Of a stretch of DNA of 24,000 nt, positions 1-14,033 are shown one piece after another. Each line of letters starts with the position of its first letter. Positions within the stretch are counted from its first letter, which is position 1. The notes below the pieces were generated by a model that was not told where the DNA came from, did not search any database, and saw only the letters and a program-made list of their open reading frames with translations. A program made the position numbers and the translations under genes. This DNA is from an uncultured Enterobacteriaceae bacterium (GTDB lineage Bacteria; Pseudomonadota; Gammaproteobacteria; Enterobacterales; Enterobacteriaceae), in NCBI GenBank assembly GCA_966185765.1, contig CBIFVZ010000008.1, positions 48,176 to 72,175 of the forward strand. Reading direction: 5' to 3'.

Positions 1-110
1 GTAAGCTGGCGCAGCGTGGCTAATAGCTGAGTCTCATCCAGCAGCAATGCCAGCCCCGGCAGTTGCGAGTCAGCGGCAATGAGCGCCTGCTCAAGCTGAT
101 GGGCGGTCAT
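1..110 (-). CDS. 5' end (36 codons) of an unidentified CDS that continues beyond the window; last visible gene of the glycosyltransferase/ABC operon
   Basis: ATG at 110..108 overlaps the ABC-transporter stop (ATGA, 110..107). The frame MTAHQLEQALIAADSQLPGLALLLDETQLLATLRQL stays open to the window edge. It is too short to assign a family. Confidence 0.4.
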   Translation of the reverse strand, partial: MTAHQLEQALIAADSQLPGLALLLDETQLLATLRQL

Positions 111-1915
111 AGCGCCACTCCTTTTTGAATATTCCACAGTTCGAAATAACGTCCCTGTTGTGCCATGAGCACTGCATGATTACCCTGCTCAATGACCTGC
201 CCGCCATCAAGTAGCAGAATGCTGTCGGCTTTTGCCGCCAGGGCCAGGTTATGGGTAATGATGACCGTGGTTTTACCCTGCATCAGGCGCGCGAGAGCGT
301 CGGTCACCGCCTGCTCGTTTTTGCTGTCAAGGCCCACACCCGGTTCGTCGAGCAGTAAAAATGCGCTGTTGCGGATGGCGGCACGGGCAATGGCAATACG
401 CTGGCGCTGCCCGCCGGAAAGTGACATGCCGCGCTCACTGACAACCGTGCCGTAACCCTGCGGTAGATGCAGGATAAAGTCGTGGGCGTTGGCAAGCTTT
501 GCCGCAGCAATCACCTCCTCGTCGCTGACCTCACCCTCAGCGCCCAGCGCGATGTTCTCCCGAATACTGACGCCAAACAGCAGACTCTCTTGCGGCAGGT
601 AGCCAATCTGGCGACGCAGGTTGTCTACGGCATAATCGCGTACATCCGTACCATTGAGCGTAATGCGTCCACGGTCAGGCTCATAAAGACGCAACAAGAG
701 TTGGCTGAGCGTTGATTTACCGGCACCCGATGGGCCTGTGATAGCAAGCGATTGTCCGGCAGGAACGGTAAAGCTGACGTCACGTAATACAGAGGCTGGC
801 TCGTTTTCATGGGGGCTGTGGTAGGCAAAATGCACGTTTTCGAATGCCAGGTTCAGACCAGCACGCGCAATCAGTGGTTTGCCCGCCTCGCGGTCAATAC
901 CCACTGGCTGGTGCAGCAGTTCAATAACGCGCTCACCTGCGGTTACGGCCTTTGCCAGGCGGCTGCTGTATTTTGCAAATTCGCGCACCGGTCGGAAGGC
1001 GTTTTTCATATAGGAAATAAAGATAAGCAACTCGCCTGCCGACATTTTGCCGCCCAGCACGCTGCGCGCGCCAAGCAGCAACACCAGCGCTGTTACCACG
1101 GCAATGAGTACATCAACCTGGCGCTCCAGCCCCGCAGCAAGACGTTTTGCCCGCACGTTTTGTTGCAGGCTCTGGCTGTCGCTGCCGTTGAAGGTTTCGG
1201 TCGCCGCCTTTTCCAGCGACATCGCCTGGAGTGTCGCAATGCCTGTCATATATTCTGCTGAACGTGCCGCCAGATGCCCTTCGCGCTTGCGTTGGGCGCG
1301 GCTGACATCGCGAATTTTTCCTCCGCTGCGCATTGTCGCAAGCGCGAGCAGCGGCATAGGCAGTAGCGTAAGCAACGTAAGCTGCCAGTCCAGAAAGAAC
1401 ATGATGCCAAGCATCCCGGTAAAAATGACGATGCTGGAAAGCAGCGGCATGATGGCGGTGACGGTCGCTTCACGCATCATGCCGATGTCATTTATCAGGC
1501 GCATCGTCAGATCGCCCGTGCGGCTACGCTGGTGAAACGACAACGGCAGGTGCAGCAGATGGGCGAATAACGCGCGGCGAATAGCGCTCATGACCCGGCT
1601 GCCCGCCAGCGCCATGCCTATCGTGCTGGCATAACCTGCAACCGCCCTGAGAATGGCAATCACCACCACTGCAATCGCACACAGCCACAGCAGTTTTTCA
1701 GTCTCCAGTACGTTGATGCTCAGGCCATTTAACAACGTATTGTGTTTGATATCGCCCATGACCACGTCAATGGCAAACGCCAGCGGCCACGGTTCCAGCA
1801 GGCGAATCACGCTTGCCAACAGCAACACGATAAACGAGCCAGCAATCAGTCCTTTTTGCTGGCGAATCCAGGGCCAGAACGCGCGCAGGACCGACGTGGA
1901 TGATTCAACGGCCAT
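107..1915 (-). CDS. ABC exporter, fused permease/ATP-binding half-transporter (MsbA/NdvA-like architecture)
   Basis: 602-aa ORF with a hydrophobic N-terminal half containing multiple TM segments. The C-terminal NBD has Walker A GPSGAGKST, ABC signature LSGGQRQR, Walker B LLLDEP and an H-loop ITHNL. Confidence 0.9.
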   Translation of the reverse strand: MAVESSTSVLRAFWPWIRQQKGLIAGSFIVLLLASVIRLLEPWPLAFAIDVVMGDIKHNTLLNGLSINVLETEKLLWLCAIAVVVIAILRAVAGYASTIGMALAGSRVMSAIRRALFAHLLHLPLSFHQRSRTGDLTMRLINDIGMMREATVTAIMPLLSSIVIFTGMLGIMFFLDWQLTLLTLLPMPLLALATMRSGGKIRDVSRAQRKREGHLAARSAEYMTGIATLQAMSLEKAATETFNGSDSQSLQQNVRAKRLAAGLERQVDVLIAVVTALVLLLGARSVLGGKMSAGELLIFISYMKNAFRPVREFAKYSSRLAKAVTAGERVIELLHQPVGIDREAGKPLIARAGLNLAFENVHFAYHSPHENEPASVLRDVSFTVPAGQSLAITGPSGAGKSTLSQLLLRLYEPDRGRITLNGTDVRDYAVDNLRRQIGYLPQESLLFGVSIRENIALGAEGEVSDEEVIAAAKLANAHDFILHLPQGYGTVVSERGMSLSGGQRQRIAIARAAIRNSAFLLLDEPGVGLDSKNEQAVTDALARLMQGKTTVIITHNLALAAKADSILLLDGGQVIEQGNHAVLMAQQGRYFELWNIQKGVAL

Positions 1916-3074
1916 CGCACGCTCCTGCCGGTAACCGCAGACCGGCCAGTTGCCAGATGCGGTTCACCGCCTGAGTCCAGCTGTGGTGCTGTTCGGCTTC
2001 GCGACGCCCTGCGCTACCCATTTTCTGGCGTAGCGCAGGGTTGTTAATAAGGGCAATGACTGCCTGCGCCAGCGCCGCCGGGTCTTCTGGCGCAACCAGC
2101 AGCCCGGTCTCTCCATCATGAACCAGTTCAGCAAGGTGGCCGACACGCGTGGTGATAACGGGTAGCCCTGCGGCCATGTATTCATAAATTTTGAGCGGTG
2201 AAAAATAGAAATTTTCCAGCTGCGGATAAGGCGCAATGGCAATATCCACCCCTGAAAGCAATGGCGGCACCTGCGCTGGCGTGACAGCGCCGTGAAACTG
2301 AGCGCCGCAGACACCGCTTTGCGCCAGCCTCTGCTGAAGTTCGCTTGCCTGCGGTCCGTCGCCAATAATTGATAGCGTGACGTTGTAACCTTTCTGTCGC
2401 AGTAAGATGAAGGCATCAACCAGCGTATGTAGCCCGTGCCAGGGTTTGAGTGTCCCTACGAAGCCCAGCGTTAGCGCATCCCGCTCGTCGTTATCGGTGC
2501 GCGGTGCAAAGCGCGTTGGGTCAACGCCGTTTTCAACCACGTGCACCTTGCCCTGCGCCGGTGCGAAGGTTTCAAGCCAGTTGCGTACACCTGCTGAGAC
2601 CGCAATGATGGTGTCGGCGTGGTTGAGCAGGTTATCGAGTACGGCAAATGCCTCCTGCTCCAGCACCAGTTTGCGGTACTGGCGCTGCTCCTGGGGTAAT
2701 GGCGCATTCACCTCCAGCACCGTCGGTATACTCGCATTGTGTGCCCAGGTAATCGCAGCATGGCTCCACAGCGAGTAGCGCTCATACACCACATCAAACG
2801 GCCCTGCCGCGCTAAGCTGTTCTGCCAGCATCGTGTTAGCGTTGAGGGCGGCGCGTGCACGCGTTTCTTCATCCGTACCCGGCAGTGTGGGTAACGTGAT
2901 TATTTTCAGTGCACGAAACGCCTGAGGCACGTCACCCCCGAGCCTTTGGGCAAACAGCGTAATCTCAGCACCCTGTTGCAACAGCACGCGCAGCACTTCC
3001 TGGATATGAATCGACGCACCCTTTTGACCGAAAACCGGAATGCCCGGATCGGCGCAGATATAAGCCACTTTCAT
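1905..3074 (-). CDS. Glycosyltransferase, GT4-like (GT-B fold)
   Basis: 389-aa ORF. N-terminus MKVAYICADPGIPVFGQKGASIHIQE. The C-terminal GT4-type motif is EYMAAGLPVITTRVGHLAELVHDGETGLLV. Its stop overlaps the ABC start by 11 nt. Confidence 0.88.
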   Translation of the reverse strand: MKVAYICADPGIPVFGQKGASIHIQEVLRVLLQQGAEITLFAQRLGGDVPQAFRALKIITLPTLPGTDEETRARAALNANTMLAEQLSAAGPFDVVYERYSLWSHAAITWAHNASIPTVLEVNAPLPQEQRQYRKLVLEQEAFAVLDNLLNHADTIIAVSAGVRNWLETFAPAQGKVHVVENGVDPTRFAPRTDNDERDALTLGFVGTLKPWHGLHTLVDAFILLRQKGYNVTLSIIGDGPQASELQQRLAQSGVCGAQFHGAVTPAQVPPLLSGVDIAIAPYPQLENFYFSPLKIYEYMAAGLPVITTRVGHLAELVHDGETGLLVAPEDPAALAQAVIALINNPALRQKMGSAGRREAEQHHSWTQAVNRIWQLAGLRLPAGACDGR

Positions 3075-4300
3075 CAGGCGGTTTCCTTACCCTTGTGGGA
3101 AATGGCGTTACAGAAGATATTCCGCAAACGTGCGGCGTTACGGTCAATATCGAACTCACGCTCAATCAATGCCCTTGCCGTTTGTGAGAGCTGAGAACGC
3201 AGTGCGTGGTTAGTGACCAGCCCGGCAATAGCCTCAGATAATACCTGCGCATTTTGTGGCGCAACGCAACGCCCGGTTTCACCGTCAATAACCAGCTCAG
3301 GGATACCGGCGACATCCGTTGAGATAACCGGCGTGCCGAGTGCCATCGCCTCAAGTAAGACGGTTGGCAGGCCATCGCGATCCCCTTCTTCGCTAATAAT
3401 GCAGGGAGCGACAATCAGCGTGGCATGACGCATGGCGGCGATGATTTCCCGCTGGGGTAAAAACCCCGTCAGCGTGATGATGTCTTCAAGCTGTGCGGCT
3501 TTAATCTGGGCTTCAAGCGCCGCCCGCAGCGGACCGTCGCCGATAATGCTGCAGCGCAACGGATGTCCCGCATCGCGCAGCAAGCGTATTGCCTCAACCA
3601 GGTAGCAGAATCCCTTTTTCTCAACCAGCCGCCCTACGGCAAGAATTTTCGTTTCCTGGGCTGTGTCTGGTGCAGTAAAAGTGAATTTCTGCAGATCGAT
3701 ACCGTTGTACAGCCGCGTTGTTGAGGCTGCACTGTCGCCATATCGCTCACGCAACCAGCGCAGGTTGTAATCTGAAACGGTCACGGTCTGAAAGGCATCA
3801 CGCAGCTTGCCTTCAAGCTCGGTGCTTTCTTCGTAGGGGTAATAAATATCTTTCGCGTGGGCGGTAAAGCTGTAACTGATCCCGCTTAGCTGCGCTGCAA
3901 GTCGTGCCACAGTGGTTGCACGCGTGCCGAAATGGGCATGCAGGTGCTCAATACCACGTTCGCGCACGGTGAGCGCCAGCTGTAGCGCCTGGGAAAACTC
4001 ATGCACATTGCGGTGGCGGCCCTTGTCCAGACAGTGGGCAAGACCCGGTAGCTCGCGCCATGCCCTGTCAAGTAACGCCCAGAAGGCTTCAGCGCTGCGC
4101 TGTTTATCATTCAGTCGGCTTACGGGGGCTTTCACCAGAGCAATGGTGTCCTGAAAATGGGTTTCTTCCACATTTCCCAGCGCAAAAATATCAATCTTTA
4201 ACCCTGCGCGTTCATGGGCGAGGATTTCATTTACAATGAAGGTTTCTGAAAAACGCGGATAGCGTTTGACAACGTAGCCGATATAACGTTGTGGTGACAT
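3074..4300 (-). CDS. Glycosyltransferase, GT4-like (WcaL-like N-terminus)
   Basis: 408-aa ORF. N-terminus YVVKRYPRFSETFIVNEILAHERAG is typical of WcaL-type GT4 enzymes. C-terminal motif is LLEAMALGTPVISTDVAGIPELVIDGETGRCV. A GAGGT Shine-Dalgarno sits 5 nt before the ATG. The stop overlaps the next ATG (TGATG). Confidence 0.88.
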   Translation of the reverse strand: MSPQRYIGYVVKRYPRFSETFIVNEILAHERAGLKIDIFALGNVEETHFQDTIALVKAPVSRLNDKQRSAEAFWALLDRAWRELPGLAHCLDKGRHRNVHEFSQALQLALTVRERGIEHLHAHFGTRATTVARLAAQLSGISYSFTAHAKDIYYPYEESTELEGKLRDAFQTVTVSDYNLRWLRERYGDSAASTTRLYNGIDLQKFTFTAPDTAQETKILAVGRLVEKKGFCYLVEAIRLLRDAGHPLRCSIIGDGPLRAALEAQIKAAQLEDIITLTGFLPQREIIAAMRHATLIVAPCIISEEGDRDGLPTVLLEAMALGTPVISTDVAGIPELVIDGETGRCVAPQNAQVLSEAIAGLVTNHALRSQLSQTARALIEREFDIDRNAARLRNIFCNAISHKGKETA

Positions 4301-4301
4301 G

Positions 4302-5504
4302 CTATACCTCGCACTGCACAGATGCGGTTAACTGACTTTTCTGTGTTAACAGCGCATTCATTTTTTCAGTGAAGGTATACAGACCATTCAGACTCATATG
4401 CTGACGGGGATTTTCCGGCTGCCATTGTGATGCCATCCAGTTATTCAGTGCCTTAACGGTTAATTCATCAGGATGAATACAGCTCACCAGATTAATTTGC
4501 GCCAGATGTGAGGCACGAATCCATTGTTCCTGCCGGGGTGAAACACGTGGAATAATGAGCGCGCGTTTATTGAGCGATAATATTTCAATGGTTGTGTTAT
4601 ATCCACCCATAGCTACCACGCTGTGTGCCTGGCGTAATAGCGCGAGTGGGTTGGGTACGAAGCGAATAATGCGCAGGTCAGCGCGTGTGGCCGCTATTTT
4701 TTGTAGCGCTTCGAATTCGGCCGTAGGCATCATCGAGCCGGTAATTAATATGCCGGTAAATCCCTCGGGAAATGAGGACTGCGCAAAACGTGAGGCCAAA
4801 CGGAAGCCATCCTGACCGCCGCCAACCGTACATAATACATAGGGTTCGTTAAGTTCAGCCAACAGGCTGTCGGCAGATTGCGGCTGCTGGGCATGGTGCG
4901 TTGCGTCCAGATAACCCATAAATGACACCTTGCGCCTGACCTCCTGGTCAAGCCCATAAGCCTGCGTTAAGTCGTAGAAACTGGCATCGCCGTAGACCCA
5001 GACATTACTGTAGTAATCGCGAATGGCACCTGCGTTATCAAGCTTTTGCCACTGGCGCTGCACTGCCTGTGGCTCATCGATGATATCGCGAAGGCCAAGT
5101 ACCAGATGTGCGTTTTCCTCTCTTAGCATAGGGAGCACGCTATCAAGCTCTGACATCGCGCCACGCGGGACATTGTCTACCACCACCACGTCAGGGCGGA
5201 AGGACTTGAGGGCCGCATGAATAATACTGACTCGCAAAGAGACCAGACGATGGATATCGTTACCCAGTGAATGCGGTAAATATTCACCGGCCGGGGTTTT
5301 CAGATACGTGGGAAGCGTGACCGAATCCATCCCTTTAGGAAAATGAAATACGCCGGATTCACGTACGCCGTTAATGAGGAGAATTTCTGTATCAGGTCTG
5401 GACTTTAAAACGGAGTTCGCCAGCAGCATGTTACGCCGGACATGACCGAGGCCCATTGTGTCGTGAGAATAAAAAGCAAGTCGTGCGGGACGATAACCAC
5501 CCAT
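4302..5504 (-). CDS. Predicted GT-B glycosyltransferase (COG4671 / GT28-C-terminal-like)
   Basis: N-terminal RLAFYSHDTMGLGHVRRN motif and C-terminal MGGYNTTIEILSLNKRALIIPR motif. The maximal ORF starts at 5594. The ATG at 5504 (MGGYRPARLAFYSHD) is preferred because a GGGAG SD lies 8 nt upstream and the N-terminus then has a family-typical length. Confidence 0.8.
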   Translation of the reverse strand: MGGYRPARLAFYSHDTMGLGHVRRNMLLANSVLKSRPDTEILLINGVRESGVFHFPKGMDSVTLPTYLKTPAGEYLPHSLGNDIHRLVSLRVSIIHAALKSFRPDVVVVDNVPRGAMSELDSVLPMLREENAHLVLGLRDIIDEPQAVQRQWQKLDNAGAIRDYYSNVWVYGDASFYDLTQAYGLDQEVRRKVSFMGYLDATHHAQQPQSADSLLAELNEPYVLCTVGGGQDGFRLASRFAQSSFPEGFTGILITGSMMPTAEFEALQKIAATRADLRIIRFVPNPLALLRQAHSVVAMGGYNTTIEILSLNKRALIIPRVSPRQEQWIRASHLAQINLVSCIHPDELTVKALNNWMASQWQPENPRQHMSLNGLYTFTEKMNALLTQKSQLTASVQCEV

Positions 5505-5594
5505 ATTGAAAACTCCCATTCCATGGAAAATAAATAATTTCTGGTGATGTATGTAACATGGCGGAAATAAAATATCACCAGGATAAATGGACAA

Positions 5595-6067
5595 TCTTTG
5601 TTATTTTTTTATTTGTAGCTGCTTCTTTATCACGCCTTTCTTAACTGATTATTAAGAGGTGAAAAAATAAGTTTCAGATATGGGTGGAATAAAAATAGCG
5701 TGATATTTCTTATTTTTCGTTGCCGAATGTGCGCAGATTAAACTCAGGTGCAAGCGGGTGGAAGGCTCAGCTTATTAAGCGCAGGCAATGGCATCATTTA
5801 TGGGATGAAAGTGATAATGCCAGTGTAACCCGGCACGTTTATCATGATTTATTGTTTTTTTAACCTGAAGTAGGTCGCATTTTTTGGAGAAAATTTCCCT
5901 GGTGTTACATTACTGCGCTATGTGCGGATCGCACGACTAACTTTTTAAACAGTTGCCATTATATTCCTCTCTGACAGATATGTAAGATGTACTAATATAC
6001 TGCCGTATCCTGTTCTTAAGTACAGGTGATATGACATGATTTCAGGCACACGCGGAGGGAGCAGCGT
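5595..6067. promoter_or_regulatory. AT-rich divergent intergenic/control region between the GT-ABC operon and the luxR-family gene
   Basis: ~470 bp with no ORF longer than 20 codons and visibly lower GC than the flanking genes. It contains two LuxR-type-box-like palindromes (5922..5934 and 6008..6027). Confidence 0.55.
6008..6027. promoter_or_regulatory. lux-box-like 20-bp inverted repeat (candidate LuxR-family operator)
   Basis: TCCTGTTCTTAAGTACAGGT is 16/20 self-complementary. The CCTGT...ACAGGT arms match the V. fischeri lux box ACCTGTAGGATCGTACAGGT at 13/20 positions. It lies 41-60 bp upstream of the luxR-family ATG. Confidence 0.5.
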
Positions 6068-6799
6068 ATGTTATCTGTCTTTAGAGAAAATACAGTAATG
6101 AGTGGCGCTCTCAGAGAATATATTGAGCGGCGGTTACAGCCCTGTGGGCTGACGACCTATGCCTACATTGTGTTGAGCAAGCATAACCTTGCCGATGTGT
6201 TAATGATCTCTAACTACCCAAAAGCCTGGCAGGAGCAGTACCTGTCTAACAATTATTACCAGCGCGATCCGGTTGTGTTAAGTGGGCTTAAGCGAAGCTC
6301 ACCCTTCTGTTGGGATGAGAACATCACCTTCCGGCTATCCGAAATCTTCAGGTTGTCAAAACCTTACAATATTGTGAACGGTGTGACATTCGTCCTGCAT
6401 GACCACCTTAACCACGTGGCCATGCTGTCGCTGGTGACTGACTGTTTCGTCTCACAATATGAGCAACTCAAAACGCACAGTGCTAATCTGCAAATGCTGT
6501 TGATAGATATCAATGAGCAAACCCACCGTTTGCTGGATACGCCGCCGTCACTCACCTCCACAGGGCCGTCCTCAGAGCGTGACAGGTCGATGTTCACCCC
6601 GCGCGAGCATGAGGTACTGTACTGGGCAAGCATGGGAAAAACCTATGACGATATTGCCATTATTCTCGGTATCACCGAGCGCACGGTAAAGTTTCATATG
6701 GCGAATCTGGTTCGCAAGATGGGGGTCAGCAATGCGCGTCAGGCTATTCGCCTGGGTGTTGAACTGAACATGATAACACCCACCACTCTACTGCAATGA
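6068..6799 (+). CDS. LuxR-family transcriptional regulator with an N-terminal autoinducer (AHL)-binding domain and a C-terminal GerE/LuxR HTH; no cognate luxI in the window (LuxR solo within this window)
   Basis: 243 aa with a GGAGG SD at 6054..6058. The motif NYPKAWQEQYLSNNYYQRDPVV...FCWDE...NGVTF aligns with TraR W57/Y61/D70/P71/W85/G113. The HTH is TPREHEVLYWASMGKTYDDIAIILGITERTVKFHMANLVRKMGVSNARQAI, with the E-x3-L-x5-G pattern. Confidence 0.9.
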   Translation: MLSVFRENTVMSGALREYIERRLQPCGLTTYAYIVLSKHNLADVLMISNYPKAWQEQYLSNNYYQRDPVVLSGLKRSSPFCWDENITFRLSEIFRLSKPYNIVNGVTFVLHDHLNHVAMLSLVTDCFVSQYEQLKTHSANLQMLLIDINEQTHRLLDTPPSLTSTGPSSERDRSMFTPREHEVLYWASMGKTYDDIAIILGITERTVKFHMANLVRKMGVSNARQAIRLGVELNMITPTTLLQ

Positions 6800-6891
6800 T
6801 GAAGTGCTTCCTCCCAACCCAATGGGTCAGGAGCGAAACAGATGGGGGTATATTTGTCCCCGCTCTGCGCGGTATTGCATGTGCCGGGGCA

Positions 6892-7080
6892 TCAGGAAAA
6901 CGTTCTGCTCGTCCACCTGCTCTGGCTAGAGTTACAAGAGCTGTGATAGAAAGTTTCACTGCGCGAAACAGTGTCATTGTTGTTGCCCGTGAATGCACAC
7001 CACTCGGTAAAACCATTCTCAGGGCGAAAGTTGCATGCAGTGCCGCAGGGCGGGCTGTGGTAGATGGTTATGTTGCTCAT
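6892..7080 (-). pseudogene. arsC: arsC (glutaredoxin-type arsenate reductase) remnant; only the first ~14 codons are recognisable
   Basis: The ATG lies 12 nt after the arsB stop, in the usual arsB-arsC position. MSNITIYHSPPCGT matches E. coli ArsC MSNITIYHNPACGT, including catalytic Cys12. After ~7036 the frame no longer resembles ArsC and stops at 62 codons, versus ~141 expected. A full-length arsC would run into the luxR-family gene. Confidence 0.65.
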
Positions 7081-7092
7081 ATCAGCATCTGA

Positions 7093-8382
7093 TTACAAAG
7101 TGGCAGAAAGCCGCAGCGCCAGCGCGGCCAGCGTGACAAACAGCACTGGCAGGGTCATGATGATGCCCGTGCGAAAGTAATATCCCCAGCTGATGGTCAT
7201 GTTTTTCTGCGACAGGACGTGCAGCCACAACAGGGTCGCCAGACTGCCTATTGGTGTGATTTTGGGACCTAAATCGCAGCCAATAACGTTGGCATAGATC
7301 ATCGCTTCCTTAATGACGCCAGACGCTGTGCTGGCGTCAATCGACAGTGCTCCAACAAGAACGGTTGGCATATTGTTCATGACCGATGACAGGAATGCTG
7401 TCAGGAAGCCCGTACCAAACGTTGCCGCCAGCAGTCCCGTATTTGCCAGCATATTCAAAACCCCGGAAAGATATTCCGTTAAGCCTGCATTGCGCAGACC
7501 ATAGACCACCAGATACATACCCAATGAGAAAATAACAATCTGCCACGGCGCACCGCGCAGTACTTTTCCGGTATTGATGGCATGGCCGCTTTTCGCGACG
7601 ATGAATAGCACCGCAGCGCCGACGGCCGCAATAGCGCTAACAGGAATCCCCAATGGCTCAAGGACGAAGAATCCGGTAAGCAACAGAAACAGAACAACCC
7701 AACCTGCTTTGAAGGTTGCGGGATCTTTAATTGCGCTTGCAGGTACTTTGAGCAAAGTGACGTTGTAGGTTGCAGGAATGTCCCGGCGGAAAAACAGATG
7801 TAGCATGCCCAATGTGGCCGCGATAGCAGCAATATCAACGGGGAGCATGACGGATGCGTATTCCGTAAAGCCAAGCTCGAAAAAGTCAGCGGAGACAATG
7901 TTGACAAGATTCGACACGATAAGCGGTAGGCTGGCGGTATCGGCAATAAACCCGGCGGCCATAACAAAGGCCAGCGTTGTCTGTTGGCTGAACCCGAGTG
8001 CAAGCAGCATAGCGATGACAATGGGGGTCAGGATAAGCGCTGCACCATCGTTAGCAAACAAGGCCGAAACAGCTGCGCCCAACAGGACAATCCAGGTAAA
8101 CAGCAGACGACCACGCCCGTTACCCCAACGTGATACATGCAGTGCAGCCCATTCAAAAAAGCCCGACTCATCGAGCAACAGGCTGATGATAATCACCGCA
8201 ATAAAGGTCGCCGTTGCGTTTCAGACGATGTTCCAGACTACCGGAATATCCCCCACATGAATAACACCGGCTACCAGGGCTAGTGCAGCACCAATGCTGG
8301 CGCCCCAGCCAATACTGAGTCCTCGGGGTTGCCAGATAACCAGGATCAGCGTCAGTAAAAATATACTCCCTGCCAGTAACAT
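7093..8382 (-). pseudogene. arsB: arsB arsenite efflux pump interrupted by a single in-frame TGA at codon 54
   Basis: Hand translation from the ATG at 8382 (GGAG SD upstream) gives [73 protein letters not shown]. This is collinear with E. coli ArsB (429 aa) except for TGA at 8223..8221, where ArsB has Trp54 (WNIVWNATAAF). The remaining 375 codons are in frame and highly ArsB-like. Confidence 0.85.
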
Positions 8383-8426
8383 CTCCGACTCCATTATATA
8401 TGATTACAAGAATGTGTTGATTCAGG

Positions 8427-8747
8427 TCAGCAGGATGATGCTGCTGATTTATCCAGCCACTGACCAATTTCCTCCCGCAGGCAGTGCCAGGATGTCGTGA
8501 TGGTATCTGCCGCCCATGCGGGCATATATGGAGAAAGCCGGTAGTGGATCCATTTCCCTTCTCTGCGATCAAGCACCAGTTTAGCCTCTCGCAGGATTGC
8601 CATATGTCGGGAAATTTTGGGCTGAGACTCGGAAGTGGCCCCACAAATATCACACACGCACATCTCGCCCGATTCCCTGAGAAGCATCACGATAGCCAGA
8701 CGGGTTTCGTCTGACAGAATTTTGAAAAGCTGAACAGGCTGTAGCAT
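8427..8747 (-). CDS. arsR: ArsR arsenic-responsive transcriptional repressor (ArsR/SmtB family)
   Basis: MLQPVQLFKILSDETRLAIVMLLRESGEMCVCDICGATSESQPKISRHMAILRE closely parallels E. coli ArsR, including the CVCDxC As(III)-binding cysteines. The ATG at 8747 is preferred, because the upstream GTG at 8774 lies inside the promoter/operator. Confidence 0.9.
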   Translation of the reverse strand: MLQPVQLFKILSDETRLAIVMLLRESGEMCVCDICGATSESQPKISRHMAILREAKLVLDRREGKWIHYRLSPYMPAWAADTITTSWHCLREEIGQWLDKSAASSC

Positions 8748-8770
8748 TTTTCTTCCGGTAAACGTAGACA

Positions 8771-8812
8771 ACACATATGATAAATCATATGTGTTATTTT
8801 TAACATTGTCGA
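8771..8812 (-). promoter_or_regulatory. Candidate ars promoter with palindromic operator
   Basis: The 24-bp palindrome ACACATATGATAAATCATATGTGT (8771..8794) is 22/24 self-complementary. On the minus strand there is a -35 TCGACA (8812..8807), a 17-bp spacer and a -10 TATGAT (8789..8784) inside the palindrome. Confidence 0.5.
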
Positions 8813-9247
8813 TTTCAGCGAAGAAGGAAATGGATCAATTTCCGCTCCTCAATACTGACTGTGCCGACAACGCATCCTGAAGTGACTGAGCTGCATGAAC
8901 TGGTGCAATGGTCTGGCTACGGGGCGACGTGCGCGATAATGAACAGACTGATTGGCCGGATCCCTTTGTCAAAAGGAACGGTTCGTCCTTGCCGGGGAAA
9001 ACGCTGGCGGTCATGCAGGTCTGCGGCGGTTTTCAGTCATTCAATGACGTTAATCAGAGGCATATCATGGGACGCTGAATGCGCATGTTCACTATCCCGA
9101 ATGAGTCCTCCATGACAAAAGCCAGGCCAGGATTTGATAACAACGGCGCACGAAACGATGGATAGATCAGACGTTCAGGGACAGGCTGCACAACCGTTAC
9201 GAGAAAATCGCGACATGCTGGGTGCCACCGCTCATGGCAAATATACC

Positions 9248-9454
9248 TTAACGCCCTGCTCCCAACCGCTGCAGGCACGTTATCAATTCGCTTTCACTGA
9301 TATTGATATATTCCAGTACCCGACCGTAAAGCATTGCGGTCGGCACTGGTCTTCCTGCCATTTCCTGCTGCGTGTGGTGTAACACATAAAGCACGGTGCG
9401 CTCTATGTCATTTAGGCCGTCGCGCACGTTGGGAATTGAATCCTGCAATTTCAT
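9248..9454 (-). CDS. Hypothetical 68-aa protein, possible small winged-helix protein
   Basis: This is the only protein-like ORF in the 8795..9515 gap. IPNVRDGLNDIERTVLYVL resembles the LPDVRDGLKPVHRRVLYAM motif at the N-terminus of type IIA topoisomerase A subunits. The SD is weak and no family could be confirmed. Confidence 0.35.
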   Translation of the reverse strand: MKLQDSIPNVRDGLNDIERTVLYVLHHTQQEMAGRPVPTAMLYGRVLEYINISESELITCLQRLGAGR

Positions 9455-9515
9455 GACAGACTGCCTGCCTGTATACGTATCTGTAGTGTGAGTCTATGCA
9501 TTCACATACAGACGG

Positions 9516-9877: not shown

Positions 9878-10990
9878 TTATTGAACGCGCGTTTCCCACC
9901 AGGCGCTCATGTGTGGCTCTGTGTGAGCCGGATACACCACTTCACCCATCACAGGTGTCAGCAGTGTGTAAGGTTTGCCCTGGCTTGCTGTTGTCAGCCG
10001 CTGCCAGGGATCGTTCCAGGTATGTTTTGCCAGTACAAAACGTCCTGCATGACCGGGCATCACCGTACGGGCATTAAGGTCAACTGCACCCTGCGCCGCT
10101 TCTTGCGGATGCATGTGAATGTTTTTCCAGTCCGGGTCGTACTGACCGTTTTCCATGAGAGCGATATCAATAGGGCCAAACCGCTCACCGATGTCTTTGA
10201 AGTGCGGACCATAACCGCTGTCCCCACTGTAATAAATTTTGCGCTCAGGAGTGACGAACAGAAAGCTCGCCCACCGTGTGGGATTGGTTTTCAACCCACG
10301 ACCGGAAAAATGACGGGCAGGCAGCACATGCACGGTTAGCGAGTCAGAAAACGACCACGCCTGCTGCCAGTCGGACTCCTGAATCCGTGCTGCGTCCATT
10401 CCCCAGTGCTCCAGATGTGCGCCAACGCCGAGCGGCACCAGCGCCAGACCGACTTTCGGCAGCAGTGCTCGCACCGTCGCGTAGTCCAGGTGATCGTAAT
10501 GATCGTGGGAGATAATCAGATAATCAATGAATGGCATGTTCTGCGCGCGCCAGGGGTAAGGACCGGTGAAGGCTTTATTGATAAACGAAAACGGTGACGC
10601 ATAACTGCTGAATACCGGGTCAACCAAAATACGCTTGCCCGCCAGCTGGAGATACCAGGATGAGTGGCCGAGCCACACCACTACGTCTTCTTCCGGGGCC
10701 AACGCGCTAAGGTCAGTGGGCTGTAGCGGCAACGCCGCGCCCGGGCGCAGGTTTTCGCGCTTTTGCGTCACAAACTCCCACAAGAGTTGGATGCGCCCTT
10801 TCTCGCCTGTCAGCATGGGTGTGGGCTGGGCGTTGTGAAATTGTCCGTCACGGTATTGCGGCGATTGCGTGAGCGCCGCAAGCCGCTCTCCCTCAGGCGC
10901 ACGGCCAAACACAGGATGCATTAAGTAAGACAGACTTCCCATTGCGGCTATCAGCATTACGATTACCACACTTATTTTCAGGTTCTTCAT
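9878..10990 (-). CDS. romA: RomA, MBL-fold metallo-hydrolase with an N-terminal signal/anchor
   Basis: 370 aa with a hydrophobic N-terminus MKNLKISVVIVMLIAAMGSL and the metallo-beta-lactamase motif SHDHYDHLD. It sits between ramR and ramA, as in Klebsiella/Enterobacter. Confidence 0.85.
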   Translation of the reverse strand: MKNLKISVVIVMLIAAMGSLSYLMHPVFGRAPEGERLAALTQSPQYRDGQFHNAQPTPMLTGEKGRIQLLWEFVTQKRENLRPGAALPLQPTDLSALAPEEDVVVWLGHSSWYLQLAGKRILVDPVFSSYASPFSFINKAFTGPYPWRAQNMPFIDYLIISHDHYDHLDYATVRALLPKVGLALVPLGVGAHLEHWGMDAARIQESDWQQAWSFSDSLTVHVLPARHFSGRGLKTNPTRWASFLFVTPERKIYYSGDSGYGPHFKDIGERFGPIDIALMENGQYDPDWKNIHMHPQEAAQGAVDLNARTVMPGHAGRFVLAKHTWNDPWQRLTTASQGKPYTLLTPVMGEVVYPAHTEPHMSAWWETRVQ

Positions 10991-13781: not shown

Positions 13782-14033
13782 ATGGAATGGGATTCACTTT
13801 TAGTATTGTTCAGCATGTTGGTGTGTGGGTTGTGGATGGTTTTTCACTCAGCCAAAGCACTTAGAAGCGGAGTATTTGTCGGCTGGTATAATGGCACGTA
13901 TAAGAACTACTACATCTACCGTTGTAAAACCCCTGTCTACTTCTACGGGTACAACGCTGTTTTTTCTCTATTCGGCTCCTTTATGATTGGTTTAGCTGTC
14001 TATCTTTTAGATGGCTATTATCAGTTTTTATAA
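13782..14033 (+). CDS. Hypothetical small membrane protein (83 aa, two predicted TM segments, Tyr-rich)
   Basis: An AAGG SD precedes the ATG. Hydrophobic stretches are LLVLFSMLVCGLWMVF and VFSLFGSFMIGLAVYLL. The sequence context is AT-rich and 11 of 83 residues are Tyr. No recognised family. Confidence 0.4.
   Translation: MEWDSLLVLFSMLVCGLWMVFHSAKALRSGVFVGWYNGTYKNYYIYRCKTPVYFYGYNAVFSLFGSFMIGLAVYLLDGYYQFL

Follow-up and report, generated by a model that had tools for sequence, protein, structure and literature searches.

An esa/yen-type palindrome upstream of an orphan luxR gene as the probable operator of a bidirectional control region in an uncultured Enterobacteriaceae bacterium

The stretch of DNA considered here (the window) comprises 24,000 nucleotides of contig CBIFVZ010000008.1, assembly GCA_966185765.1, from an uncultured Enterobacteriaceae bacterium. 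On its plus strand, at 6068..6799, lies a gene for a LuxR-family protein of 243 amino acids (aa), preceded by a Shine-Dalgarno sequence (GGAGGG, plus strand, 6055..6060, 8 nt before the ATG) that is conserved in orthologues. The gene has no adjacent luxI. Just upstream of it stands a 20-bp palindrome, TCCTGTTCTTAAGTACAGGT (6008..6027), a predicted operator for a LuxR dimer and hereafter the proximal box, for which the product of the luxR gene is the presumed cognate binder. Across the intergenic region a divergent operon for glycosyltransferases (GT) and an ATP-binding cassette (ABC) exporter occupies 107..5504 on the minus strand. An initial annotation, made from the letters and their open reading frames (ORFs), had described the palindrome as lux-box-like and its arrangement as closer to that of EsaR, where the box overlaps the core promoter and mediates autorepression relieved by acyl-homoserine lactone (AHL). 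Is the palindrome more than a coincidence? Which protein would bind it, and what would be controlled from it? The region turns out to hold three further elements that were absent from that annotation: a second, degenerate box 23 bp upstream of the first, a conserved divergent promoter and a predicted small RNA resembling those of the esaS and yenS genes.

The palindrome is confirmed as real and far beyond chance. Re-derived from the sequence, it is self-complementary at 16 of its 20 positions, as had been annotated, and its 18-bp core (6009-6026) at 16 of 18, with one T:T mismatch pair. It carries CTG at positions 3-5 and CAG at positions 16-18 and so has the lux-box core NNCT-N12-AGNN, as quoted in PMC13286868. 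With the lux box of Vibrio fischeri (ACCTGTAGGATCGTACAGGT, verified in PMC4444344) it has in common its length, its dyad symmetry and the CTG/CAG contact positions, and a recount returned the 13 identical bases out of 20 that were first reported. The esa box of Pantoea stewartii (GCCTGTACTATAGTGCAGGT, verified from the PesaR28 oligonucleotide in the supplement of PMC4169570), likewise a 20-bp palindrome with CCTGT...CAGG arms, is identical at 15 of 20. A position matrix was trained on seven boxes, none of them from the window locus or its orthologues: six from canonical luxR/luxI loci (Hafnia, Erwinia, Serratia, Yersinia, Pantoea and the 4M9 genome) and the published esa box. On this matrix from other genera the palindrome scores 25.7 bits, within the 17-27.5 bits of the training sites, while the runner-up in the 24-kb window reaches only 7.6 bits; across 300 first-order Markov randomisations of the window the maximum was 19.5 bits, so that 0/300 attain the observed score. 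The exact arms, CCTGT-N8-ACAGG, occur a single time in the window. With up to two mismatches they occur 8 times against 8.8 expected from shuffles, which is chance level, and therefore only the exact site is informative; two weak arm matches, at 13932-13949 (CCTGTCTACTTCTACGGG) and 10964-10983, were judged to be chance. By these measures the palindrome matches esa/yen-type boxes better than chance and better than it matches the lux box.

What kind of regulator is encoded next to it? The 243-aa protein combines the Pfam domains Autoind_bind and GerE, the LuxR helix-turn-helix (HTH). An identity as SdiA was rejected, as the NCBIfam model NF007561 scores 74.1 bits against a cut-off of 350, and TraR was rejected by its NCBIfam cut-off too. 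Beyond a few close orthologues, the best database relatives are LuxR proteins of 50-55% identity from Hafnia, Serratia, Erwinia, Brenneria, Rahnella, Yersinia and Pantoea, SpnR and proteins labelled EsaR or ExpR at source among them; the canonical relatives that were aligned (Hafnia, Erwinia, Serratia including SpnR, Yersinia and Pantoea) are 48-55% identical. In the alignment of 11 sequences W54, Y58, D67, P68, W82 and G105 are invariant and the HTH region is highly conserved. TraR has W57, Y61, D70, P71, W85 and G113, with the same spacing as these six hallmark residues. The top match among solved structures is 5L07, which we take to be the N-terminal domain of YenR, an assignment that a check of the literature did not confirm. 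Similarity thus defined places the window protein in the EsaR/YenR/SpnR/ExpR group. Four residues that the relatives have (LMSD) directly behind the conserved WDENIT motif of the ligand-binding domain are missing from the window protein, at about residues 87-88, and from its close orthologues.

The orthologue set consists of six loci: L001, L002 and L036, whose proteins are about 91% identical to the window LuxR, L030 (74%), L031 (72%) and the Izhakiella locus L021 (48%); a metagenome scan for further orthologues returned none closer than 40% identity. None of the sizeable ORFs of the 24-kb window carries an Autoind_synth domain, and a remnant luxI in the ORF at 6744-7016 was rejected, with zero Pfam matches at E up to 1. 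The window luxR is therefore a solo, or orphan, gene: it encodes the AHL-binding and HTH domains, and a cognate luxI is not adjacent. An intact AHL pocket and no adjacent synthase are also what it shares with other solos of the Enterobacterales, SdiA and YcoR of Yersinia enterocolitica 8081. From SdiA it is set apart by the score given above. The ycoR upstream region is without Yen-box similarity, according to PMC6027161, whereas the window solo keeps a full region with two boxes and a divergent RNA. The same solo layout is seen at L030 and L036. The latter, in the 4M9 genome (91% identity), also lies beside the same glycosyltransferase/ABC operon, and this genome has a second LuxR, 47-48% identical, encoded elsewhere with a convergent luxI (L035). 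The box of the 4M9 pair, TACTGTCCGAAAGTGCAGGA (L035:3926-3968), differs markedly from the 4M9 solo box, TCCTGTTCTTAAGTACAGGA. Together with the diverged HTH regions of the two paralogues, the different boxes suggest separate specificities, a hint that the two 4M9 circuits may be insulated from each other.

Comparison with the six canonical loci (Hafnia, Erwinia, Serratia, Yersinia, Pantoea and the 4M9 pair), all of which have a convergent Autoind_synth gene, reveals that the palindrome is one part of a larger module. The Yersinia locus in this set (L039, on a 49-kb contig) is from a species other than Y. enterocolitica. Found together in all six are a proximal box, a box-like stretch upstream of it, a TATAAT in reverse complement about 27 bp beyond that stretch, and the motif ACACCAGGGAA. 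In the window, the close orthologues and the six canonical loci the start of the proximal box precedes the ATG by 52-61 bp; the centre of the window box, 6017.5, was measured at 50.5 bp from the ATG at 6068, in agreement with the 50 bp or so annotated initially. The box-to-luxR distance in the window matches that of the Pantoea rodasii locus (L037), where the proximal box, GCCTGTACTTTAGTTCAGGT, is identical to the esa box at 17 of 20 positions. The experimentally defined esa box thus maps onto the proximal position, that is, 6008-6027, and on this alignment the palindrome occupies the position homologous to the esa box in the luxR promoter.

The second, distal box, AGATGTACTAATATACTGCC, covers 5985..6004, a start-to-start distance of 23 bp from the proximal one; neither box is assigned a strand. 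It keeps the inner TGTACT..A..TAC and has no outer CC/GG arms. Taken alone it scores 6.95 bits, the third-best site of the window, which is not significant, but its placement is constant: the second box is offset by 23-24 bp wherever it was scored (the window, the orthologues, Hafnia, Serratia, the 4M9 pair and Izhakiella), and an equivalent stretch lines up in Erwinia, Yersinia and Pantoea. Its conservation is 15-17 of 18 positions in the closer orthologues, L031 included, and 12 of 18 in Izhakiella, and the second box of Hafnia and Erwinia contains a clean palindrome, TTGTACTTAAGTAC. PMC6027161 describes two YenR binding sites, Yen box I and Yen box II. The distal box probably corresponds to one of these, an equivalence we infer from the arrangement. 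Beyond the second box the order of the module continues with GTAAG, the reverse complement of the CTTAC(A) of a -35 hexamer, which abuts the box, then ATTATA 17 bp on, then an A-run and a hairpin that lie between the divergent promoter and the conserved motif AACACCAGGGAA.

The divergent promoter is of sigma-70 type (5958..5986, minus strand), with the -35 CTTACA at 5986-5981, a 17-bp spacer and the -10 TATAAT at 5963-5958. It scores 10/12 in a promoter scan, which predicts a start near 5951, and the same CTTACA-17-TATAAT was called by the scan in L035 and L036. In seven of eight aligned sequences the -10 is TATAAT, the eighth being L031 with TAGAAT; the Pantoea locus L037, which was read apart from these, has TACAAT, and the CTTAC core of the -35 is largely conserved. 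Relative to the predicted start at 5951 the centre of the proximal box lies at about -66.5 and that of the distal box (5994.5) at about -43.5. These positions are compatible with upstream activation and with the published figure of about 60 bp for the esa system. The promoter that shares its region with the box and the ACACCAGGGAA motif is present and conserved; its activation from the boxes would follow by analogy with characterised relatives.

What would this promoter transcribe? The predicted RNA (5826..5951, minus strand) comprises a 5' hairpin (5935-5921), the motif ACACCAGGGAA (the reverse complement of 5895-5905) and a 3' hairpin (5848-5826), although the 3' end is uncertain. Read on the minus strand, AACACCAGGGAA hardly varies among eight aligned sequences, and each luxR ATG is 172-183 bp away from it. 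Across five orthologues the 3' hairpin keeps its structure, some of the changes being compensatory, and the U tract behind it is weak. An nhmmer model built from the canonical loci only, boxes excluded, finds its best window match at 5918-5887 on the minus strand (E = 0.022). We hold with moderate confidence that the divergent transcript would be an esaS/yenS-like RNA. Its target is another matter: RNAduplex comparison of the conserved RNA seed with the luxI 5' regions of the six canonical loci yielded no site that recurs consistently. Taken in the plus-strand direction, the hairpins at 5921-5935 and 5826-5848 are intrinsic terminators (a hairpin plus a T-run) facing luxR, and such plus-strand terminators are very clear in canonical loci (ACCTGACC...GGTCAGGTTTTTTTT; L032:3844-3864, L035:3852-3873, L039:2343-2362). 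They may insulate luxR from upstream transcription.

The initial annotation had made conservation of the palindrome at orthologous loci decisive for its reading. The palindrome is kept at L001, L002, L036, L030 and L021, and it is lost at L031. The 18-bp core is identical (18/18) in L001 and L002, and L036 carries the same core. Around it the sequence is freer: the 5-bp spacer just upstream is identical at 2-3 of 5 positions in L001 and L002, and of the 28 bp downstream 26 are identical in L001 and 19 in L002. At L030 the box keeps 15 of the 18 core positions and scores 20 bits, at L021 14 of 18 and 21 bits. LuxR-family loci at 30-45% identity yielded no such box. L031:590-640 retains the distal site, the divergent promoter and the RNA motif together with an intact luxR. 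At L021, from Izhakiella capsodis (5731-5759 and 6001-6703), both boxes are kept and there is no ORF of at least 100 aa at the place of the luxR homologue, which has probably decayed; further upstream this locus has an unrelated long palindrome, AATCCTGTATGATTACATCATACAGGATT, imperfect at its central base only.

How would a dimer on the palindrome affect luxR itself? Two candidate promoters can be named on the plus strand. By homology the -10 would be TTAAGT (6016..6021), a weak hexamer equivalent in position to the TATAGT of the esa box. The alternative comes from a consensus scan, CTGACA-16-TAATAT (5971..5998), with a start near 6005; its -10 falls in the centre of the distal box, the palindrome would lie at about +4 to +21, and its -35 is unconserved in orthologues. 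Under either candidate a bound dimer would be expected to obstruct RNA polymerase, the starts being predicted ones. The initial annotation had argued its geometry from the -10-like hexamers GATATG (6028-6033) and CATGAT (6035-6040). These exist, but they are poor and unconserved even in L002 (GATACCCCACAG), and being both weak and unconserved they do not carry the argument. The promoter-occluding, autorepressive arrangement of EsaR type that the annotation favoured nevertheless finds support of a different sort: the group of the protein, the 15/20 match to the esa box, the homologous position and the published placement of the esa box over the -10 of PesaR all point to it by analogy.

The characterised systems tell what such an arrangement does. 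In P. stewartii the esa box overlaps the -10 of PesaR, and EsaR represses there without AHL (PMC4169570; bioRxiv 10.1101/2025.04.03.643276). PesaS starts about 60 bp from this 20-bp box, which lies upstream of it, and is activated by EsaR; 3-oxo-C6-HSL releases EsaR and reverses both effects (bioRxiv 10.1101/2025.04.03.643276; PMC13365800). The window resembles this system further in its divergent TATAAT-type start, about 66 bp from the centre of the box as against the published 60 or so, and in the motif ACACCAGGGAA that its RNA shares with that of the Pantoea locus. It differs in that it has no convergent luxI, in the centre of its box, TTAAGT where the esa box has a good -10, TATAGT, and in its RNA, whose first hairpin is replaced by a different one and which points at the glycosyltransferase/ABC operon. 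In Y. enterocolitica, as PMC3493969 reports, signal-free YenR activates yenS, which gives RNAs of 165 nt and 105 nt that inhibit the yenI mRNA, and an RNA similar to YenS exists in P. stewartii. As in that account, the window has two sites upstream of a divergent small-RNA gene, the one of Yersinia being activated by the signal-free regulator; were its RNA to end at the 5826-5848 hairpin, the length of about 125 nt would be inside the range of 105-165 nt given there for YenS. The difference again lies in the target, as YenS is described in that text as acting on the yenI mRNA and the window has no adjacent luxI.

We therefore favour, at a probability of about 0.7 and by analogy with these relatives, the reading that the palindrome serves as operator in a control region of EsaR/YenR type that works in both directions and is 'quorum-hindered'. 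A signal-free dimer of the adjacent LuxR-family protein would bind the proximal box, and a second dimer would probably bind the degenerate box 23 bp upstream. Bound LuxR would occlude the core promoter of luxR, with the box either over the -10 or at about +4 to +21, and so repress its own gene. The same bound protein would activate the divergent promoter from about 66 bp (proximal box) and about 43 bp (distal box) upstream of the start, and this promoter would make an esaS/yenS-like small RNA toward the glycosyltransferase/ABC operon. Binding of an AHL would release LuxR and reverse both effects. As no luxI is nearby, the AHL is presumably made elsewhere, whether by a separate luxI/luxR pair as in 4M9 or by other bacteria. 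Binding by the adjacent LuxR, the direction of regulation, the response to ligand and the transcription starts are all predictions that we infer from homology.

Several observations weigh against this reading. L031 has lost the proximal box: 8 of 18 core positions match and, leaving the distal site aside, nothing there scores more than 8 bits. At least one lineage can therefore do without this box. Boxes predicted in this group may also mislead, as in Dickeya oryzae, where ExpR autorepression turned out not to depend on the lux box predicted before expR (PMC13286868); as a palindrome that 'box', CTAATAGTGATCAGAG, is much worse than TCCTGTTCTTAAGTACAGGT. The hexamer at the centre of the window box, TTAAGT, matches a -10 poorly, and the -35 is unconserved in both candidate luxR promoters. 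As to the RNA, the nhmmer match is confined to the motif and homology beyond it is undetectable, and Rfam places no family at gathering thresholds in the window, with chance-level matches only in 5450-6120, so the divergent RNA is not a curated family. Finally, a luxI-paired paralogue rather than the adjacent LuxR could be the protein that binds.

If the divergent promoter faces the operon, could the operon be what the palindrome mainly serves? The box would then act chiefly as an upstream activating site for the glycosyltransferase-ABC operon through a leader of about 450 nt, on at low density and off with AHL, an explanation compatible with autorepression that we consider doubtful, if still the strongest competitor. 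The operon has the order GT1-GT4-GT4-ABC exporter in Pfam and NCBIfam searches, encoding a GT1-like enzyme, two GT4 enzymes and an MsbA/HepA-like ABC exporter; none of its proteins reaches a curated NCBIfam equivalog. From the box to its first gene there are 415 bp, counted from the mechanical TTG start of the ORF (5594), or about 505 bp if the gene begins, as is likelier, with the ATG at 5504, 8 nt downstream of a GGGAG. Either figure agrees with the more than 400 bp annotated initially, with the remark that control from this site would need a long leader or a second site. The caveat was apt, in that a divergent promoter does face the operon; a second site was not found, as 5505-6067 and the rest of the window hold no further esa-type site and the best other site in 5505-6067 is the distal box. 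The luxR-GT synteny, kept in L030 and L036, and the lack of another esa-type site near the operon also speak for this possibility, as do the weak U tract after the 3' hairpin and a simple scan that found no minus-strand intrinsic terminator from 5951 to 5504. Yet the scan found none in the canonical small-RNA loci either; it misses their terminators, and its silence is uninformative. In the intergenic alignment two modules stand out as conserved, 5505-5745 and 5826-6067. In the stretch that separates them, at the place of window 5746-5825, L030 (5243-6000) and L031 (1-680) have insertions of about 100-190 nt, and this stretch of variable length argues against a single long leader and favours separate units: an RNA unit, and a promoter or leader that belongs to the operon. 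In the characterised relatives, moreover, the product is a short RNA (PMC3493969).

The remaining explanations concern the identity of the bound protein, or whether there is one. That the box is bound chiefly by a different LuxR, for instance a luxI-paired paralogue, so that the orphan regulator would be wired under the main quorum circuit, is improbable to our mind, though 4M9 does have such a LuxR (47-48% identical, paired with luxI) and lux-type boxes cross-react within the family, LasR doing so on the esa box (bioRxiv 10.1101/2025.04.03.643276). The paired and solo boxes of 4M9 (TACTGTCCGAAAGTGCAGGA and TCCTGTTCTTAAGTACAGGA) differ, however, as do the HTH regions, and a box before its own gene is autoregulatory in the characterised relatives. 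Much less credit is due to a classical lux box with AHL-dependent class II activation and positive autoregulation of luxR. The 13 of 20 bases shared with the lux box, CTG/CAG arms included, would suit it, but centring at -42.5 would need a luxR start near 6060, which is part of the Shine-Dalgarno sequence and leaves 8 nt to the ATG, and there is no -10 near 6048-6053. The activating geometry is rejected on the ground that the start would fall inside the Shine-Dalgarno sequence, and the geometry to the downstream gene is therefore incompatible with that of the V. fischeri box. Unlike LuxR of V. fischeri, too, the window regulator is most similar to proteins that bind DNA without signal, the characterised members of the EsaR/YenR group, and its box stands at the position homologous to the repressive esa box. 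A LexA box that would tie luxR to the DNA-damage (SOS) response is a shade less likely again. The spacing of the LexA core is CTGT-N8-ACAG, with the consensus TACTGTATATATATACAGTA. The palindrome does contain CTGT-TCTTAAGT-ACAG with an A/T-rich centre, but by hand count it matches the consensus at only 12 of 20 positions. The homologous boxes of Serratia and Yersinia, moreover, read CTAT...GCAG or CTAT...TCAG; they break the LexA core and keep the lux-type core CT-N12-AG, so the feature conserved in the family is not a LexA site. Least plausible of all, and close to negligible, is a chance palindrome, or a hairpin in the 5' untranslated region of luxR, without a protein partner. A stem of 5 bp with a loop of 8 nt is possible (-6.6 kcal/mol including flanks), but none of the 300 random windows reaches the matrix score, the box is conserved while its flanks vary, and it holds the same position across genera. 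In a hairpin its centre, CTTAAG, would have to stay unpaired; full self-complementarity at this place is typical of sites bound by dimers.

Some features of the operon side deserve mention in their own right. The region of the RNA motif at 5893-5912 and a conserved stretch at 5551-5582, which precedes the GT start codon by 47-78 nt, are complementary (inverted repeats I1 and I5). The duplex of the window seed with the 5' region of the GT operon is predicted by RNAduplex at -20.7 kcal/mol, which does not stand out from shuffled seeds (a fraction of 0.096 reach this energy or a lower one), and the complementarity is for this reason unproven. At 5639-5655 lies CTTAACTGATTATTAAG, of the form CTTAA-N7-TTAAG. 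The block that contains it, TTCTTAACTGATTATTAAG, does not vary among the four orthologues, and upstream of the GT operon the element shares bases with AATAAT, a weak -10 on the minus strand. It looks like an operator and is not a lux-type box. In 4M9 (L036:1-1987) the operon is followed by a 759-aa protein with an APH domain. One scenario, which we put forward as speculative and on balance unlikely, goes further: in Enterobacteriaceae related to 4M9 and LSJC7 a duplicated EsaR-type regulator would have lost its synthase, kept the module and seen it rewired to the GT/ABC-exporter operon, either by read-through into a leader of about 450 nt or by pairing of the small RNA (5893-5912 with 5551-5582). 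An exported glycoconjugate would then be made at low density and shut off by AHL.

On the other side of luxR the neighbours are an ars gene pair, an AraC-like gene, a gene for a metallo-beta-lactamase fold, a TetR gene and one for malic enzyme. From 6800 to 9500 the window has arsB and arsR between luxR and the AraC-like gene, where L030 and L036 have an FMN-reductase-type gene, with cytochrome-b and IclR-type genes in addition in L036; the downstream side of luxR is a variable insertion spot. A megablast of 5400-7000 against plasmids gave no matches. The arsB gene (7093-8394, minus strand) has an in-frame TGA at 8221-8223 where a conserved Trp is expected. This accounts for the late start of the mechanical ORF, at 8196, and for its match to ArsB beginning at profile position 61. 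Either the gene is a nonsense pseudogene or the TGA is a sequencing error. Two palindromes at or just upstream of the arsR start, ACATATGATAAATCATATGT (8773-8792, self-complementary at 18 of 20 positions) and AGGAAATGGATCAATTTCCG (8825-8844), are probably promoter or operator elements of ars.

What does the locus add? It provides a confident, testable annotation for the control region of an uncharacterised orphan quorum-sensing receptor, in which the operator, a probable further site, two promoter candidates and what is probably a small RNA are named. The module of two boxes and a divergent RNA spans loci of Hafnia, Erwinia, Serratia, Yersinia and Pantoea and survives in a paralogue without a synthase, which helps to annotate such loci and to select orthogonal esa-type parts for synthetic biology. 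The understanding of the family is unchanged. The locus is one more case of a known control element, well preserved and otherwise ordinary. Its interest is modest and lies in the fact that a synthase-less paralogue has kept the complete module, facing a glycosyltransferase/ABC-exporter operon; the putative link of the module to that operon is the only part that may prove to be new biology.

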